The notes beneath the pieces are model-generated. The model was not told where the DNA came from, searched no databases, and worked only from the letters and a program-made list of their open reading frames with translations. A stretch of DNA of 64,000 bases from Escherichia phage teqskov. The stretch lies in the sequence record NC_054934.1; one strand, given 5' to 3'. Made by a program: the position numbers and the translations under genes. The first letter of the stretch is position 1. Each line of letters begins with the position of its first letter. Below are positions 11,401 through 53,474 of this stretch, in pieces.

Positions 11401-11680
11401 ATATAAATCCGACTTTGATGTTAATATTCACCGTGGTACATTTTGGGGAAATTACGTCGGTAAAGATGCTGGCAGCCGGGAGGCTGCCATTGAATTATTC
11501 AAAAAAGATTTTATACGTCGAATTAAATCCGGAGAAATAACTAAAGCACATTTAGAGCCTTTACGTGGAATGAGGCTAGGATGCACATGTAAACCAAAGC
11601 CGTGTCATGGTGATATAATAGCTCATATAGTTAACCGATTGTTTAAAGACGATTTTCAAGTTGAGGACTTATGCAATTAA
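11354..11680 (+). CDS. Hypothetical protein with conserved HRGTxWGN and GCTC...PCHGD motifs (possible metal-binding domain)
   Basis: 108-aa ORF overlapping the previous ORF end and the nrdA start; Cys/His cluster [11 protein letters not shown]. Confidence 0.55.
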
Positions 11681-13935
11681 TTAATGTTATCAAAAGTAGT
11701 GGTGTTTCTCAGAGCTTTGACCCGCAAAAAATTATTAAAGTTTTATCTTGGGCAGCCGAAGGAACATCTGTAGATCCTTATGAATTATATGAAAATATTA
11801 AATCATATCTCCGTGATGGAATGACCACTGATGACATTCAAACCATTGTAATTAAGGCTGCTGCGAATTCTATTTCAGTTGAAGAGCCTGATTATCAATA
11901 TGTAGCTGCACGCTGTTTAATGTTTGCTCTTCGTAAGCATGTTTACGGACAATATGAACCACGTTCATTTATTGACCATATTTCTTACTGTGTAAATGAA
12001 GGTAAATATGACCCTGAACTGCTGTCAAAATATTCAGCAGAAGAAATTACATTTTTAGAATCAAAAATTAAGCACGAGCGGGATATGGAATTTACTTATT
12101 CCGGGGCGATGCAATTAAAAGAAAAATATCTCGTTAAAGATAAAACCACTGGTCAAATTTATGAAACTCCGCAGTTTGCATTTATGACTATTGGAATGGC
12201 ATTGCATCAAGATGAACCTGTTGATAGACTAAAACACGTTATTCGTTTTTATGAAGCGGTATCTACTCGACAGATTTCATTACCAACTCCTATTATGGCT
12301 GGCTGTCGTACTCCGACTCGACAGTTTAGTTCATGTGTTGTTATTGAGGCAGGTGATTCGCTGAAGTCTATCAATAAGGCTTCCGCTTCAATTGTTGAAT
12401 ATATCTCCAAACGCGCTGGAATTGGTATTAACGTTGGTATGATTCGTGCCGAAGGTTCTAAGATTGGTACAGGTGAAGTACGTCATACTGGTGTTATTCC
12501 TTTTTGGAAACATTTTCAGACTGCTGTTAAATCATGCTCACAGGGTGGAATTCGTGGCGGCGCTGCTACTGCTTATTATCCTATTTGGCATTTGGAAGTT
12601 GAAAATCTTCTCGTTTTGAAAAATAACAAAGGCGTAGAAGAAAACCGTATTCGTCATATGGATTATGGCGTTCAACTGAATGACCTAATGATGGAACGTT
12701 TTGGAAAGAACGACTACATTACTTTGTTCAGTCCACATGAAATGGGTGGTGAGCTTTATTATTCTTATTTTAAAGACCAAGACCGTTTCCGTGAATTATA
12801 TGAAGCCGCAGAAAAAGACCCTAATATTCGTAAAAAGCGTATTAAAGCCCGTGAACTGTTTGAATTGCTAATGACTGAACGCTCAGGAACAGCAAGGATT
12901 TATGTACAGTTCATTGATAATACGAATAACTATACTCCATTTATTCGTGAAAAGGCACCTATTCGTCAGAGCAACTTGTGTTGTGAAATTGCTATTCCAA
13001 CAAATGACGTGAATAGTCCTGATGCTGAAATTGGATTGTGTACGTTATCTGCATTTGTGTTAGATAACTTTGATTGGCAAGACCAAGATAAAATTAATGA
13101 ATTGGCAGAAGTTCAAGTTCGTGCTCTTGATAATCTTTTGGACTACCAAGGATATCCAGTTCCTGAAGCAGAAAAAGCTAAAAAGCGTCGAAACCTCGGC
13201 GTAGGTGTTACTAACTATGCAGCTTGGCTGGCAAGTAATTTTGCTTCTTATGAAGATGCTAACGATTTAACACATGAACTATTTGAGAGATTGCAGTATG
13301 GACTCATTAAAGCATCCATTAAGCTCGCCAAAGAAAAAGGACCTTGCGAATATTATTCAGACACTCGTTGGTCTCGAGGCGAATTACCTATCGACTGGTA
13401 CAATAAAAAGATTGACCAAATCGCAGCTCCAAAATACGTTTGTGACTGGTCGTCGCTGCGGGAAGACCTTAAGCTCTTTGGCATCCGTAATAGCACATTA
13501 TCAGCACTTATGCCATGTGAGTCATCTTCCCAAGTTTCTAACAGTACAAACGGTATCGAGCCTCCACGTGGACCAGTCTCTGTTAAAGAATCAAAAGAGG
13601 GTTCCTTTAATCAAGTCGTGCCCAATATTGAGCATAACATAGACCTCTATGATTATACGTGGAAATTAGCTAAGAAAGGTAATAAACCTTATCTTACGCA
13701 GGTAGCTATTATGCTGAAATGGGTATGTCAATCAGCTTCAGCGAATACATATTATGACCCGCAGATTTTTCCAAAAGGAAAGGTTCCAATGTCAATAATG
13801 ATTGATGACCTTTTGTATTTTTGGTATTTTGGCGGAAAAAATTTCTATTATCATAATACCCGCGATGGTTCTGGTACTGATGATTATGAAATAGAAACTC
13901 CAAAAGCTGAAGATTGTTCATCCTGTAAATTATGA
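11671..13935 (+). CDS. nrdA: Ribonucleotide reductase large subunit
   Basis: 754-aa ORF with ATP-cone N-terminus and class I RNR catalytic region; matches T4 NrdA size. Confidence 0.95.
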   Translation: MQLINVIKSSGVSQSFDPQKIIKVLSWAAEGTSVDPYELYENIKSYLRDGMTTDDIQTIVIKAAANSISVEEPDYQYVAARCLMFALRKHVYGQYEPRSFIDHISYCVNEGKYDPELLSKYSAEEITFLESKIKHERDMEFTYSGAMQLKEKYLVKDKTTGQIYETPQFAFMTIGMALHQDEPVDRLKHVIRFYEAVSTRQISLPTPIMAGCRTPTRQFSSCVVIEAGDSLKSINKASASIVEYISKRAGIGINVGMIRAEGSKIGTGEVRHTGVIPFWKHFQTAVKSCSQGGIRGGAATAYYPIWHLEVENLLVLKNNKGVEENRIRHMDYGVQLNDLMMERFGKNDYITLFSPHEMGGELYYSYFKDQDRFRELYEAAEKDPNIRKKRIKARELFELLMTERSGTARIYVQFIDNTNNYTPFIREKAPIRQSNLCCEIAIPTNDVNSPDAEIGLCTLSAFVLDNFDWQDQDKINELAEVQVRALDNLLDYQGYPVPEAEKAKKRRNLGVGVTNYAAWLASNFASYEDANDLTHELFERLQYGLIKASIKLAKEKGPCEYYSDTRWSRGELPIDWYNKKIDQIAAPKYVCDWSSLREDLKLFGIRNSTLSALMPCESSSQVSNSTNGIEPPRGPVSVKESKEGSFNQVVPNIEHNIDLYDYTWKLAKKGNKPYLTQVAIMLKWVCQSASANTYYDPQIFPKGKVPMSIMIDDLLYFWYFGGKNFYYHNTRDGSGTDDYEIETPKAEDCSSCKL

Positions 13936-23513: not shown

Positions 23514-23518
23514 GTTAA

Positions 23519-23542
23519 GGACTCCTTCGGGAGTCCTTTTTT
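23519..23542 (+). terminator. Rho-independent terminator (UUCG tetraloop)
   Basis: GGACTCC-TTCG-GGAGTCC followed by TTTTTT. Confidence 0.75.
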
Positions 23543-24428: not shown

Positions 24429-24470
24429 AAATAAAATGAGGGGCTTCGGCCCCTTACTGAGGAAAATATT

Positions 24471-24758
24471 ATGTTTATGACTACTTATTTTGATACCCGC
24501 AAAAATTTCTGTGAAGTGGTTTTCTCAAAGGCGCCTAAAGACCTTCCTGCTCATTTGCAGCCTACTAGTGAATCGATTAAAAACTACGTTGATGTGGTTT
24601 GTCCTTTAGAGTTCCGTACTGTAAATGGGCGCGATACTTTAGCTATCACTAAACTCAATCGTGAAATTGACATTGACCCTTCAATTGCGCGTGAAATTAA
24701 TATTTCTGATATTGGCGGTGGTAACGTTAAATCGCATGGTTTTCAGATGAGGTTTTAA
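24471..24758 (+). CDS. Hypothetical protein, 95 aa
   Basis: ORF with GAGGAAA SD, preceded by a GGGGC-UUCG-GCCCC hairpin at about 24440-24453. Confidence 0.55.
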   Translation: MFMTTYFDTRKNFCEVVFSKAPKDLPAHLQPTSESIKNYVDVVCPLEFRTVNGRDTLAITKLNREIDIDPSIAREINISDIGGGNVKSHGFQMRF

Positions 24759-24955
24759 TGAAATTCTTTTTAGGTCAAACCGTTGAATTAAAGGGAGTTG
24801 GTATACCTGGATTAATTTCTAAGGTTCTACCTCCATTTAAATGGAGTGGTATTCAAATAAAAGAGGCTTATATTGTTTCCTGGGTAGATGGAAATGAAGA
24901 CCTTCGTATGGGTGATGAATTATCTCCTATCTACGGATTAAAGGAATTAGTATGA
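24758..24955 (+). CDS. Hypothetical protein, 65 aa
   Basis: Overlapping ORF (TAATG junction). Confidence 0.5.
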   Translation: MKFFLGQTVELKGVGIPGLISKVLPPFKWSGIQIKEAYIVSWVDGNEDLRMGDELSPIYGLKELV

Positions 24956-25158
24956 ATATAATTAATAAGATTTTTGGAATTCAGTACATTAAGGTCACAT
25001 ATAAAGTAACAGATAAAAATCCGTATACTGATGAACACGAAGAACCACAAGTTAAGTCTATTATATTAGAAAAGGACCCTAACTGGCCAGTTGAATTTCG
25101 TCTTCCTTGCTATGGTCATTGGGCTGATGTTGAAATTATAAGCATTGAAAATGTCTGA
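24952..25158 (+). CDS. Hypothetical protein, 68 aa
   Basis: Overlapping ORF (ATGA junction). Confidence 0.5.
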   Translation: MNIINKIFGIQYIKVTYKVTDKNPYTDEHEEPQVKSIILEKDPNWPVEFRLPCYGHWADVEIISIENV

Positions 25159-25609
25159 GTTAGAGATTAGAAGTAATTTTAGGTGGCCATCATGTGCATT
25201 AAGTAATTTCGCCCAATGGCCTTTCGTTATGGATGGTATTCAATTTGGAGGTCTTGAAGGATTCCTCCAAGGGTGTAAGGTGAAAAATGTTGAACAACAA
25301 CGTCGTATATTTGGGTTATCCGGGCTTGCCGCCCAACAAGCTGGAAGGTCTTATGCTAGAGCTCAGGACCGTGGGACCCTCTTCTGGCTTGGAGTTCCGT
25401 TTTCAAGATACTCCCCGGCGTGGAAAGAATTATACACAAATGCATATTTTGAAGCAGCGATCCAAAACAAGGGCTTTCGTGATGCATTACAAGCCTCGAA
25501 AGGAAAAGTTTTGAAGCACAGCATGGCTAGTGGTCTAACAAAAGATGATACAATATTAACCGAAGCTGAATTTATTGATGTGTTAAACCTATTAAGAGAC
25601 TCTCTATGA
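25151..25609 (+). CDS. NADAR-family (YbiA/DUF1768-like) protein, predicted N-glycosidase / ADP-ribose-processing hydrolase
   Basis: LSNFAQWPFVMDGIQFGGLEGFLQGCK resembles the NADAR core motif (E. coli YbiA FSNFAAWPIKVDGKTWPTSEHYFQAQK, recalled from memory); ATG at 25151 (track TTG at 25145); coding sequence locally GC-enriched. Confidence 0.65.
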   Translation: MSELEIRSNFRWPSCALSNFAQWPFVMDGIQFGGLEGFLQGCKVKNVEQQRRIFGLSGLAAQQAGRSYARAQDRGTLFWLGVPFSRYSPAWKELYTNAYFEAAIQNKGFRDALQASKGKVLKHSMASGLTKDDTILTEAEFIDVLNLLRDSL

Positions 25610-26445
25610 AGCCTACTATTTTAACTGATATTGATGGAGTTTGTTTAAGCTGGCAATCAGGTCTTCCTTATTTTGCTCAGAAATATAATCTTCCGTTAGA
25701 ACATATTTTAAAAATGATCCAAGATGAGAAATTTATTTCTCCAGGTAAACTCTTTAATTGTGATGAAGAACTTGGTGTCAAGTTAATTGAAAAATATAAT
25801 CGATCAGATTTTATTCGTTACTTGTCTCCATATAAAGATGCCCTGTGTGTAATTAACAAACTAAAAGAAGATTATAATTTTGTAGCTGTTACAGCATTGG
25901 GTGATTCTATTGACGCTCTGTTGAATCGTCAATTTAATTTGAATGCTCTTTTTCCTGGCGCCTTCTCGGAAGTAATGATGTGTGGTCATGATTCTTCAAA
26001 AGAAGAGTTGTTCAAAAAGGCAAAAGAGAAATATAACGTAATTTGTTATATTGACGATCTCGCGCATCATTGCGATCATGCGAGTGAAATATTAAATGTT
26101 CCTGTTTATTGGATGGCTCGAGGAGAGCGTGACAATATTCCAAAAACTGCGCAGCGAGTTTATACATGGAATGATGTAGAAAATAAACTTTTTTCACCGA
26201 AGGAAAATAAAGAAAGTTTTGATAGTGAAAAAGCTATAAAAGATGTAATTGAAAAGATGATTAAAAATGATTCTTTTCGTTGGAACACTACCTGGAGAAC
26301 TCCTGGGTTTAATCCTTATAATCATCTATATCATCCATATCAGACACATCCGTTTCAGACATGGAACTATATTAAACCTGGTGGCATAGAGTATTTGTAT
26401 AATAGACCTACTTGTGGTGATAATATTTTCCAAGGAGCATTCTAA
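25606..26445 (+). CDS. HAD-superfamily-like protein (N-terminal DIDGV motif), 279 aa
   Basis: MKPTILTDIDGVCLSW matches HAD motif I (DxDG[TV]); start overlaps the NADAR-like gene stop. Confidence 0.6.
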   Translation: MKPTILTDIDGVCLSWQSGLPYFAQKYNLPLEHILKMIQDEKFISPGKLFNCDEELGVKLIEKYNRSDFIRYLSPYKDALCVINKLKEDYNFVAVTALGDSIDALLNRQFNLNALFPGAFSEVMMCGHDSSKEELFKKAKEKYNVICYIDDLAHHCDHASEILNVPVYWMARGERDNIPKTAQRVYTWNDVENKLFSPKENKESFDSEKAIKDVIEKMIKNDSFRWNTTWRTPGFNPYNHLYHPYQTHPFQTWNYIKPGGIEYLYNRPTCGDNIFQGAF

Positions 26446-26714
26446 TGTTTGTCGTTCACACTATTTATGAAAATGAAGGTAATACTACGCGTGATTACGG
26501 TCACGTAAATCAATTCTTTAGATGCAATCCAGAATTCCGAGCTCAAAAAGACGAACGAATTTTTAAAAAATGTGTAGAGCAAGGTTTCATTTATATCAAG
26601 CACTGGATGCAAGGAAATAAAGTTAGAACTACATATCATAGGTCTTTAACTGAGCTTAATGATGAATTGATTTATAATAGAGCTGTAAATCAAACTCTGA
26701 AGGATGAACAATGA
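26445..26714 (+). CDS. Hypothetical protein, 89 aa
   Basis: Intact ORF overlapping neighbours (TAATG / ATGA junctions). Confidence 0.55.
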   Translation: MFVVHTIYENEGNTTRDYGHVNQFFRCNPEFRAQKDERIFKKCVEQGFIYIKHWMQGNKVRTTYHRSLTELNDELIYNRAVNQTLKDEQ

Positions 26715-28174
26715 TTCTTAAAATTCTGAATGAAATAGCATCTATTGGATCAACTAAGCAGAAGCAAGCAATTCTTGAAAAGAATAAAGATAATGAATTG
26801 CTTAAACGAGTATATCGTCTGACTTATTCTCGTGGGTTACAGTATTATATCAAGAAATGGCCTAAACCTGGTATTGCTACCCAGAGTTTTGGAATGCTGA
26901 CCATTACCGATATGCTTGATTTCATTGAATTCACGTTAGCTACTCGGAAATTGACTGGAAATGCTGCAATTGAGGAATTAACTGGATATATCACTGATGG
27001 TAAAAAGGATGATGTTGAAGTTTTGCGTCGAGTGATGATGCGAGACCTTGAATGCGGTGCTTCAGTATCTATTGCAAACAAAGTTTGGCCAGGTTTAATT
27101 CCTGAACAACCTCAAATGCTGGCAAGTTCTTATGATGAAAAGGGCATTAGTAAGAATATCAAGTTTCCAGCCTTTGCGCAGTTAAAAGCAGATGGAGCCC
27201 GGTGTTTTGCTGAAGTCCGAGGCGATGAATTAGATGATGTTCGTCTTTTATCACGAGCTGGTAATGAATATCTAGGATTAGATCTTCTTAAGGAAGAGTT
27301 AATCAAAATGACTGCTGAAGCCCGCCAGATTCATCCAGAAGGTGTGTTAATTGATGGCGAATTGGTATACCATGAGCAAGTTAAAAAGGAACCAGAAGGC
27401 CTAGATTTTCTTTTTGATGCTTATCCTGAAATTAGTAAAGCTAAAGAATTCGCCGAAGTAGCGGAATCTCGTACTACTTCTAATGGAATCGCCAATAAAT
27501 CCTTAAAAGGAACCATTTCTGAAAAAGAAGCTCAATGCATGAAGTTTCAGGTTTGGGATTATGTCCCGTTGGTAGAAATATACGGTCTTCCGGCGTTTCG
27601 TTTAAAATATGATGTACGTTTTTCTAAACTAGAACAAATGACATCAGGATATGATAAAGTAATTTTAATTGAAAACCAGGTAGTAAATAACCTAGATGAA
27701 GCTAAGGTAATTTATAAAAAGTATATTGACCAAGGTCTTGAAGGTATTATTCTCAAAAATATCGATGGATTATGGGAAAATGCTCGTTCAAAAAATCTCT
27801 ATAAATTTAAAGAAGTAATTGATGTTGATTTAAAAATTGTAGGAATTTATCCTCACCGTAAAGACCCTACTAAAGCAGGTGGATTTATTCTTGAATCAGA
27901 GTGTGGAAAAATTAAAGTAAATGCTGGTTCAGGCTTAAAAGATAAAGCCGGTGTAAAATCGCATGAACTTGACCGTACTCGCATTATGGAAAACCAAAAT
28001 TATTATATTGGAAAAATTCTAGAGTGCGAATGCAACGGTTGGTTAAAATCTGATGGCCGCACTGATTACGTTAAATTATTTCTTCCAATTGCGATTCGTT
28101 TACGCGAAGATAAAACTAAAGCTAACACATTTGAAGATGTATTCGGCGATTTTCATGAGGTAACTGGTCTATGA
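26711..28174 (+). CDS. 30: ATP-dependent DNA ligase gp30
   Basis: 487 aa, same length as T4 ligase; adenylation motif KADGAR present (AQLKADGARCFAEV). Confidence 0.95.
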   Translation: MILKILNEIASIGSTKQKQAILEKNKDNELLKRVYRLTYSRGLQYYIKKWPKPGIATQSFGMLTITDMLDFIEFTLATRKLTGNAAIEELTGYITDGKKDDVEVLRRVMMRDLECGASVSIANKVWPGLIPEQPQMLASSYDEKGISKNIKFPAFAQLKADGARCFAEVRGDELDDVRLLSRAGNEYLGLDLLKEELIKMTAEARQIHPEGVLIDGELVYHEQVKKEPEGLDFLFDAYPEISKAKEFAEVAESRTTSNGIANKSLKGTISEKEAQCMKFQVWDYVPLVEIYGLPAFRLKYDVRFSKLEQMTSGYDKVILIENQVVNNLDEAKVIYKKYIDQGLEGIILKNIDGLWENARSKNLYKFKEVIDVDLKIVGIYPHRKDPTKAGGFILESECGKIKVNAGSGLKDKAGVKSHELDRTRIMENQNYYIGKILECECNGWLKSDGRTDYVKLFLPIAIRLREDKTKANTFEDVFGDFHEVTGL

Positions 28175-28359
28175 AAGCTTACTTAGAAACAATTGTCGTG
28201 GCTCAAAAAGAAGGTGGAGATGTTTCTACTTCTGTATCACAAATCATGATTGAATTTATAGATGCATATGCTTATAATAAATTCACAGAAACATTTGATG
28301 CCTATGAAAAAGGTCCAAAGTTTGAAATATATCGTACTCTCTTACCAATAGATTATTAA
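28171..28359 (+). CDS. Hypothetical small acidic protein, 62 aa
   Basis: ORF overlapping the ligase stop (ATGA). Confidence 0.5.
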   Translation: MKAYLETIVVAQKEGGDVSTSVSQIMIEFIDAYAYNKFTETFDAYEKGPKFEIYRTLLPIDY

Positions 28360-28388: not shown

Positions 28389-28411
28389 GAATAAACATTA
28401 GAGAGGATATG

Positions 28412-30505
28412 ATGGAACTCATTACAGAATTATTTGACGAAGATACTACTCTTCCGATTACAAACTTAAATCCAAAGAAGAAAATACCACAAATTTTTTC
28501 AGTTCATGTTGATGACGCAATTGAACAACCAGGCTTTCGTTTATGCACGTATACATCTGGAGGTGATACTAATCGCGATTTAAAAATGGGCGATAAAATG
28601 ATGCATATCGTTCCTTTTACATTAACTGCAAAGGGGTCAATTGCTAAATTAAAGGGTCTTGGACCGAGTCCTATTAATTACATCAATTCAGTATTTACCG
28701 TAGCAATGCAAACAATGAAACAGTATAAAATTGATGCATGTATGCTACGCATTCTTAAATCTAAAACAGCCGGTCAATCTCGACAAATTCAACTTATTGC
28801 AGATAGACTCATCCGTAGTCGTTCAGGCGGTAGATACGTCCTTCTTAAGGAACTCTGGGATTACGATAAAAAGTATGCATATATTCTTATACATCGCAAA
28901 AATGTATCACTAGAAGACATTCCAGGAGTTCCGGAAATTAGTACAGAGCTCTTTACTAAAGTTGAATCGAAGGTCGGTGATGTTTATATCAATAAAGATA
29001 CTGGGGCTCAAGTAACTAAAAATGAGGCAATTGCAGCATCAATTGCACAAGAAAATGATAAGCGTTCTGACCAAGCTGTTATTACTAAAGTTAAAATTTC
29101 CCGTAGAGCAATTGCACAAAGTCAGTCATTGGAATCTTCTAGATTTGAAAGTGAATTATTCCAGAAGTATGAATCTACGGCAGCTAATTTTAATAAACCA
29201 GCTACTGCACCTTTAATTCCCGAAGCAGAAGAAATGAAAATTGGAATTAATTCATTAGCTTCTAAAACAAAGGCAGCAAAAATTATTGCTGAAGGAACGG
29301 CAGATGAACTTCATTATGATTATAAATTCTTTCCGCTGAGTCGGGTTGGTGAAGTTTCTGAAAAAATTAAAGATACAATTCTACATGCTATTAAAAATGA
29401 GCCAACTACCTCAATAAAATGTTTAGAAAAATACGCAGCAGCAGTTAATTCACTTTTTGATGAATACAAAGATAGTTGGCTTGCTAAACACAATAAAAAT
29501 CGCAAAGGTCAACCTGACGAAGTTTGGGAAGAATTGACTAAAAATGCTTGGAATGCGGCAAAAACTAAATTTCTTAAACGAATGATATACAGTTTCTCTG
29601 GCGTAGGAGCTGGTCCTATGATTGATATTACAATCGCTCGTGATGGTTCTAAATATACTCCATCACAAAAGAGAGGTATTAGAGAATACTGTGGATCAGG
29701 GTATACTGACATCAATAATCTTCTTTTGGGTCGTTATGATCCAGAACGTTATGAAGTAATGAGTGAAAAAGAAATTGAAGCTGCTATAACTAATTTAGAT
29801 TCTGCTTTTGAAAATGGTGATCGTATACCAGAAGGCATTACAGTTTATCGTGCTCAGAGTATGACTGCTCCTATATACGAAGCTTTAGTTAAAAATAAAG
29901 TGTTCTACTTCAGAAATTTTGTATCTACTTCTTTAACTCCTATCATTTTTGGACGTTTTGGAATCACACATGCTGGTATTGGTCTTTTAGAACCAGAAGC
30001 TCGCAATGAATTAACAGTTGATAAAAATGAAGAAGGAATAACTATTAATCCAAACGAAATAAGAGCGTATAAAGAAAATCCTGAATACGTTAAAGTTCAA
30101 ATAGGATGGGCAATTGATGGAGCTCATAAAGTTAATGTTGTATATCCAGGAAGTCTCGGAATAGCAACAGAAGCTGAAGTTATTCTACCGCGTGGATTGA
30201 TGGTCAAAGTTAATAAAATAACTGATGCTTCTAATAATGACGGAACAACATCTAATAATACAAAACTCATTCAAGCTGAAGTTATGACCACGGAAGAGCT
30301 CACCGAATCGGTAATCTATGATGGAGACCATTTAATGGAAACTGGTGAATTGGTTGCAATGACAGGTGATATTGAAATAGAAGACAGAGTTGACTTTGCA
30401 TCATTTGTTTCATCAAACGTTAAACAGAAAGTAGAATCATCTCTTGGAATTATTGCGTCTTGCATAGATATTACAAACATGCCTTACAAGTTCGTTCAAG
30501 GATAA
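28412..30505 (+). CDS. alt: Alt NAD-protein ADP-ribosyltransferase (packaged, injected with DNA)
   Basis: MELITELFDEDTTLPITNLNPKKKIPQIF... about 697 aa; C-terminal ART motifs Arg (VYRAQ), FVSTSL and EAE; matches T4 Alt from memory. Confidence 0.9.
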   Translation: MELITELFDEDTTLPITNLNPKKKIPQIFSVHVDDAIEQPGFRLCTYTSGGDTNRDLKMGDKMMHIVPFTLTAKGSIAKLKGLGPSPINYINSVFTVAMQTMKQYKIDACMLRILKSKTAGQSRQIQLIADRLIRSRSGGRYVLLKELWDYDKKYAYILIHRKNVSLEDIPGVPEISTELFTKVESKVGDVYINKDTGAQVTKNEAIAASIAQENDKRSDQAVITKVKISRRAIAQSQSLESSRFESELFQKYESTAANFNKPATAPLIPEAEEMKIGINSLASKTKAAKIIAEGTADELHYDYKFFPLSRVGEVSEKIKDTILHAIKNEPTTSIKCLEKYAAAVNSLFDEYKDSWLAKHNKNRKGQPDEVWEELTKNAWNAAKTKFLKRMIYSFSGVGAGPMIDITIARDGSKYTPSQKRGIREYCGSGYTDINNLLLGRYDPERYEVMSEKEIEAAITNLDSAFENGDRIPEGITVYRAQSMTAPIYEALVKNKVFYFRNFVSTSLTPIIFGRFGITHAGIGLLEPEARNELTVDKNEEGITINPNEIRAYKENPEYVKVQIGWAIDGAHKVNVVYPGSLGIATEAEVILPRGLMVKVNKITDASNNDGTTSNNTKLIQAEVMTTEELTESVIYDGDHLMETGELVAMTGDIEIEDRVDFASFVSSNVKQKVESSLGIIASCIDITNMPYKFVQG

Positions 30506-51185: not shown

Positions 51186-51610
51186 TAGCTTAATCCTAAT
51201 GCTTTACGGCGTTTAAGAGCTTTTTTACGCTTACGCTGAGCACGAGATTGACCTGCTGGATTGGCAATCTTCGTTTTGGTAGCTTTACGAGCAATTTGTC
51301 TACGTTTTGCTTTAGACAGCCCAGTGGTTTGAAATGCATTACGTTCACGCGTTTTGCGGTCTTTAGTGCGAGTAATTTCACCACGGGCAGAAACATGTTT
51401 AACGATGAATTCATTTAACGGCATATTTTCATTAATAGAAGCTAATGCAACCGCTAAATCAGTTTCATCATCAAGCATATTCTCGACAATTGTATTTATA
51501 TCGTCTTTATTTAAAGCAGAAGACAATTCGTCAAAGCGACCCTGTGCTTCAGGAATAAGTGCTTCGACATTCTCGAGAACTAATTCATGAGTTTCAGGGA
51601 TCAGAAGCAT
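51185..51610 (-). CDS. 68: Prohead core protein gp68
   Basis: 141-aa ORF with basic C-terminus; T4 gp68 size and position. Confidence 0.85.
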
Positions 51611-51848
51611 TATTCATCATCCTCGTCTTCGTCAGAGTCTTTGTCTTTTTTGTCGTCTTTATCATCACTATCTTCGTCTTCGTCATCATCCTCATCATCA
51701 GGTTCTTCACCTTCGATTAAGAAATTGCGAGCGATAGCGATTTTTTCTTCTTTAATTAAATCAATCGTTCTTGCAGCCATGGCTTCAGCAAAGAATTTAC
51801 GAGCGGCTACGAGGTCGTTTGATTTAATAGCTTCAATTAAACCTTCCA

Positions 51849-51849
<1 letters not shown>
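51610..51849 (-). CDS. 67: Prohead core protein gp67 with poly-acidic tail
   Basis: 79-aa ORF ending in a D/E-rich run ([32 protein letters not shown]); T4 gp67 position. Confidence 0.85.

Positions 51850-53474
<1,625 letters not shown>

Follow-up and report, generated by a model that had tools for sequence, protein, structure and literature searches.

A T4-like phage genome segment carries a probable ortholog of the anti-DarTG1 gene adfN, of mildly atypical composition

The open reading frame (ORF) at 25151–25609 is, with a probability of about 0.93, orthologous to gene 30.3 of T4, since renamed adfN (for anti-DarT factor NADAR), which encodes an anti-DarTG1 DNA ADP-ribosyl hydrolase. The window, that is, the whole 64-kb stretch of DNA analysed, is a genome segment of a T4-like phage (Tequatrovirus). 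Its adfN product was identical to T4 gp30.3 at 151 of 152 residues, with the same length and the same stop, the sole difference being the conservative replacement of I125 in T4 by M125 here; the protein of phage RB27 was 100 % identical. The fold, activity and counter-defence role of gp30.3/AdfN are already known, having been published in 2023–2026. The ORF comprises 459 nt; because these include the stop codon, the product has 152 aa and not the 153 aa given in an earlier note on this DNA. A TTG at 25145 is just the first possible start of this ORF, while the ATG at 25151 yields the T4 numbering. The features of the gene are as follows.

25151–25609, + strand: adfN (T4 gene 30.3), coding sequence of 152 aa plus stop, predicted phage-type NADAR DNA ADP-ribosylglycohydrolase
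25199–25279, + strand: NADAR core motif, residues 17–43 (LSNF...E36...Q40..K43), conserved and aligning to YbiA
25256–25258 and 25277–25279, + strand: codons of E36 and K43, inside the core motif
25517–25519, + strand: codon of H123, right after the last beta-strand (residues 120–122 in the model)
25562–25603, + strand: C-terminal alpha-helix in the model, residues 138–151, with the reading frame intact to the T4 stop

In the Pfam scan, the product matched PF08010 (Phage_30_3) with an E-value of 2.2e-70 and 235 bits against a cut-off of 36, covering positions 1–138 of the 138-position profile. A total of 1,509 phage records contained a homolog of gp30.3 (near full length in 1,502), and a megablast search with the 2.4-kb stretch around adfN detected 684 phage records, the best being Shigella phage Sf24 (98.1 %). 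The gene also occupies the position known from T4, between 30.4 and 30.2 and upstream of the DNA ligase gene. The gene order, all on the + strand, is 31, rIII, 30.9 to 30.4, 30.3, 30.2, 30.1, DNA ligase (gene 30), alt.1 and alt; the same order is found in T4, of which the RefSeq record has the reversed orientation.

The peptide LSNFAQWPFVMDGIQFGGLEGFLQGCK, which corresponds to residues 17–43 of the product, had been taken as resembling the NADAR core motif. This resemblance was supported by sensitive methods only, namely, profile comparison, a structure model and the matching of family members to PF08719, the NADAR family of Pfam. The product itself gave no match to PF08719 at E≤1 and was placed by Pfam in PF08010; a single-sequence phmmer search of the PDB returned a chance match only, NCBIfam returned nothing, and PHROGs returned only families of 'unknown function'. 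We collected 104 gp30.3 homologs and aligned 70 full-length ones. An hmmsearch with the profile of these 70 homologs detected Escherichia coli YbiA (2b3w) over the motif region with an E-value of 0.008, and in hhalign the family alignment matched E. coli YbiA over 90 columns with a probability of 93.3 % and an E-value of 2.7e-7. PF08719 was matched directly by 10 of the 70 homologs, with a best E-value of 1.5e-7. The support for the adfN product as a NADAR homolog is therefore indirect, coming from the relatives that match PF08719 and from the hhalign match to YbiA. The AlphaFold2 model built from the homolog alignment had a mean pLDDT of 93.4 and showed the NADAR fold, an alpha-helical core with small flanking beta-sheets; in the structure-model comparison, all matches were NADAR structures.

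The conserved residues of the family coincide with those expected of the phage enzyme. Among the 70 homologs, S18, N19, F20, E36, Q40 and H123 were invariant and K43 was conserved in at least 90 %, and the core motif aligned to FSNF...SEHYFQAQK of YbiA. The residue at the last strand is Glu in YbiA-type, Asp in DarG1-type and His in phage gp30.3-type NADARs (PMC11125620, PMC11543638, PMC12945103). This phage-type His is present in the adfN product as H123, which places it in the gp30.3 subfamily. The gene has a full-length frame with the C-terminal helix present and is free of the frameshift found in RB69. E36, K43, the intact C-terminal helix and the flanking genes are all the same in T4 gp30.3/AdfN (PMC11825919) as here. 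Given E36, K43, H123 and the intact helix 138–151, the M125 allele of this phage should be functional.

The counter-defence role against DarT proposed in the earlier note agrees with published experiments (PMC11825919) on T4 gp30.3, which differs from our protein at a single residue. By mapping, Johannesman et al. (2025) identified gene 30.3, which was renamed adfN, as the determinant of DarTG1 resistance in T2 and T4, and deletion of adfN from T4 or T2 abolished plaque formation on DarTG1 cells (PMC11825919). RB69, the allele of which is frameshifted, lacks the C-terminal helix and is inactive, was rescued by ectopic AdfN-T4; the AdfN-T4 variants E36A and K43A were impaired and rescued RB69 more weakly (PMC11825919). 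Purified AdfN strips ADP-ribose from DNA, and AdfN is without effect on DarTG2 (PMC11825919). The NADAR mechanism was established by Schuller et al. (2023) (PMC11543638), and hydrolysis of guanine-ADP-ribose (guanine-ADPr) by the T4 enzyme in vitro was described in two Toxins papers (PMC11125620, PMC12945103). The 2024 Toxins paper gives the T4 NADAR construct as residues 1–208, while the gene encodes 152 aa.

By analogy with published work on the T4 protein (99 % identical), from which both the enzymatic activity and the counter-defence phenotype are carried over, AdfN of this phage would be a minimal, core-only N-glycosidase with the NADAR fold. When a DarTG1 host is infected, the DarT1 toxin would ADP-ribosylate guanine (N2) in the phage DNA and block replication. 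AdfN would then hydrolyse the guanine-ADP-ribose bond by means of Glu36, Lys43 and the phage-specific His123, releasing ADP-ribose and restoring the DNA. As an orphan enzyme, it would mimic the antitoxin DarG1 and be specific to guanine-linked ADP-ribose, and the thymidine-modifying DarTG2 would not be countered. On this basis we infer that the phage is DarTG1-resistant because of adfN. An intact adfN allele predicts DarTG1 resistance, a point of use in predicting host range and in phage therapy.

The action against DarTG1 could be one use of an enzyme that has its main targets elsewhere, either guanine-ADPr placed on RNA by other defence ADP-ribosyltransferases (ARTs) or the modifications made by the ARTs of the phage itself, Alt, ModA and ModB. 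NADARs of every family, among them the T4 enzyme, have been reported to remove guanine-ADPr (PMC12945103), activity against other toxins has been suggested by the published authors, and alt belongs to the same run of genes (28409–30505). However, AdfN is not known to be linked to Alt, ModA or ModB, the phage NADAR is absent from the enzymes listed as reversing cytidine-ADPr (PMC12945103), and the clear deletion phenotype is specific to DarTG1 (PMC11825919). We consider main targets of this kind unlikely. The alt ORF (28409–30505, + strand) starts 2.8 kb downstream of adfN on the same strand, and its product is an RNA polymerase ADP-ribosyltransferase according to the T4 record; it has 698 aa here, and the T4 alt coding sequence of 2049 nt encodes 682 aa.

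AdfN-T4 gives uninfected cells no protection against DarT1 and rescues phages other than T-even phages only weakly (PMC11825919, PMC11125620). From these two observations, a T-even-specific component acting in vivo is postulated. The genes next to adfN are as follows.

24952–25158, + strand: gene 30.4, 68 aa, PHROG 2042 (labelled 'unknown function'); 8-nt overlap of its stop with the adfN start
25606–26445, + strand: gene 30.2, HAD-superfamily phosphatase-like; its start overlaps the adfN stop (ATGA)

Eight genes on the + strand at 24471–28359 (30.6, 30.5, 30.4, adfN, 30.2, 30.1, ligase and alt.1) follow one another with stops and starts overlapping by 1, 4 or 8 nt. This arrangement suggests that the run from 30.6 to alt.1 is one translationally coupled unit, including adfN and the ligase gene. 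The promoter scan detected 21 sites against 20.7 expected. A strong terminator-like hairpin with a GC-rich stem of 9 bp followed by a T-run was seen at 23517–23538 (+ strand), just after the 30.9-equivalent ORF, and a GC-rich palindromic hairpin at 24439–24454, between 30.7 and 30.6.

The downstream gene had been described as HAD-like, and our analysis of gp30.2 bore this out. Direct family searches with gp30.2 gave no match. The protein has a Rossmannoid HAD fold with all four motifs, I–IV (DxD, Thr/Ser, Lys and DD), and in 54 homologs D8, D10, K132, D150 and D151 were invariant and T96 was conserved in at least 90 %. The family profile matched a 5'(3')-deoxyribonucleotidase with an E-value of 0.022, and some relatives matched the Pfam families HAD and NT5C. 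The closest matches of gp30.2 are 5'(3')-deoxyribonucleotidase-like enzymes, and its label in the T4 RefSeq record is 'hypothetical protein'. The C-terminal tail of about 80 aa is disordered, rich in aromatic residues, Asn and Pro, and variable among relatives.

In the T4 and RB69-like clades, gene 30.2 adjoins adfN; of 66 divergent loci, only 6 have it within 4 kb, and most of the divergent phages have the NADAR without 30.2. No conserved operon partner of the NADAR was found in these 66 loci, no ORF family being present in more than seven of them. That gp30.2, or the product of another gene between 30.6 and the ligase gene, could be the T-even factor needed for full AdfN-T4 activity, or could process the released ADP-ribose, appears very unlikely.

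Finally, we analysed the base composition and codon usage of adfN and of the GC-rich stretch within it.

25310–25426, + strand: GC-rich, rare-codon-rich patch, codons 54–92, encoding the peptide FGLSGLAAQQAGRSYARAQDRGTLFWLGVPFSRYSPAWK; 55.6 % GC, GC at third codon positions (GC3) 0.49
25287–25514, + strand: ORF 30.3', 75 aa, in the +1 frame inside adfN; annotated in the T4 RefSeq record and coincident with the GC patch

The earlier note had inferred a GC enrichment from hand counts and taken it as a hint of horizontal acquisition. The enrichment and the counts were reproduced; the composition points only faintly to horizontal acquisition, and recent transfer was not supported. The segment 25321–25380 had a GC content of 61.7 %, and the remaining 60-nt blocks of adfN 33–45 %. 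The 60-nt peak, at 25312–25425, reached 63.3 %, the highest value in the entire window. Over its whole length, adfN had a GC content of 42.0 %, compared with 36.1 % for the window, and as a 459-nt block it was only in the top 5 % of blocks of this length (z=1.75). In each of three rankings of a cleaned set of 84 non-overlapping ORFs, by GC, GC3 and atypical synonymous codon use, adfN came second. The synonymous-codon log-likelihood of adfN was −1.20, compared with an ORF mean of −0.92 (sd 0.10), and rare codons made up 15.9 % of the gene, compared with a mean of 7 %, with a concentration in codons 54–92. In this patch, GC3 was 0.49 compared with about 0.27 typically, and the mean synonymous log-probability was −1.54 compared with about −1.1 elsewhere in adfN. 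The rare codons clustered there are GGG, GCC, TCC, AGG, CTC and GCG.

Much of this signal could be traced to the protein. From the amino acids and the codon usage of the window, a GC content of 49.1 % (sd 2.5) was expected for the patch and 55.6 % was observed, an excess with P of about 0.01 for a patch that was picked post hoc; for adfN as a whole, 40.7 % was expected and 42.1 % observed (P=0.14). The Gly/Ala/Arg/Pro-rich peptide accounts for most of the GC patch, and a residual synonymous excess in codons 54–92 remains. The composition of adfN is thus mildly but really atypical.

Three causes of the patch were considered and rejected. A hidden RNA element was discarded since the patch gave no signal of RNA structure (fold z=−0.23) and no credible match in Rfam. 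A mosaic origin of the patch, by recent exchange between the T4 clade and the RB69-like clade, was discarded since no segment of adfN, the patch included, showed unusually high identity between these clades. For dual coding by ORF 30.3', we compared 14 sequences of these two clades. The level of synonymous variation in gene 30.3 was 0.68 inside the overlap and 0.69 outside it, the 30.3' peptide was 63 % identical where gp30.3 was 86 % identical, and in some relatives the start codon of 30.3' was missing or a stop was present. In this 14-sequence comparison, no purifying selection on 30.3' was seen, and dual coding was rejected because variation was undiminished, the peptide was poorly kept, and the start was lost or a stop gained. 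ORF 30.3' is probably a by-product of the low density of stop codons in a GC-rich stretch and not a selected gene. A Shine-Dalgarno-like site, AAGGTG, is located 5 nt upstream of its ATG.

Placement of adfN in a recently acquired, GC-rich island would agree with its second rank among the 84 ORFs for GC, GC3 and atypical codons, with its excess of rare codons and with the GC peak of the window falling inside it, and the phage NADAR clade has been proposed, from a published phylogeny, to derive from bacterial DarG1-like NADARs. The wider record argues against such an island. Homologs, almost all near full length, are spread over the 1,509 phage records, adfN keeps its position in both the T4 clade and the RB69-like clade, and the amino acids account for the GC content of the whole gene and for most of that of the patch. 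Several of the rare codons are common to the RB69-like clade, the proteins of which are about 86 % identical; these shared codons are therefore ancestral, and the absence of any unusually identical segment between the two clades points the same way. The GC content of homologs in 79 loci exceeded that of their flanks by an average of only about 1.6 points. Taken together, a recent island is highly improbable, and the composition fits an ancient capture at most, as the published phylogeny proposes.

Two other ORFs with extreme values were encountered in the window. The high-GC3 ORF 13274–13642, excluded from the ranking set, is an artefact: it lies in another reading frame within the 754-aa ORF 11671–13935, which we read from its sequence as a putative ribonucleotide reductase (nrdA). 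The ORF with the most atypical codon usage, 51587–51898 (+ strand; 18.8 % rare codons), lies between long opposite-strand ORFs and is probably a spurious antisense ORF.

A metabolic, YbiA-like N-glycosidase, acting on riboflavin-pathway intermediates or another small-molecule N-glycoside and not in DNA repair or counter-defence, has next to no likelihood for the adfN product: E. coli YbiA comes up among the nearest matches of both the structure and the profile and some source annotations name relatives YbiA-like, but the Glu that defines YbiA at the last strand is replaced by the invariant His123, the substrate of T4 gp30.3 is ADP-ribosylated DNA and T4 requires the protein against DarTG1 (PMC11825919), the phage clade is reported, in a published phylogeny, to be closest to DarG1-type NADARs, and the T4 deletion phenotype is reported to be restricted to DarT1-expressing hosts.

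Among the closest known systems, E. coli YbiA (2b3w) and the Phytophthora NADAR (8bau), of the YbiA/NADAR family PF08719, show 19–20 % identity to the adfN product; YbiA has a housekeeping role in riboflavin metabolism, unlike the phage enzyme. Compared with the NADAR of DarG1 (Geobacter lovleyi, 8bat; E. coli C7 DarG1; BC4488 subfamily), the phage protein lacks the N-terminal extension and carries His where DarG1 has the catalytic Asp, and its gene is not next to a DarT; in contrast to DarG1, AdfN-T4 fails to neutralize DarT1 in uninfected cells. AdfN-Bas32 and AdfN-Bas60, NADARs of T5-like and Vequintavirinae phages, also counter DarTG1. Both are placed in other clades of NADARs and are active outside the T-even context, whereas the T4-type enzyme would need the postulated T-even factor for full activity. 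The annotation of about 1,500 phage records could be changed to AdfN or phage NADAR. Nearly all of the 1,509 GenBank records of gp30.3 homologs carry the label 'hypothetical protein', and some are wrongly named 'esterase' or 'virion structural protein'.
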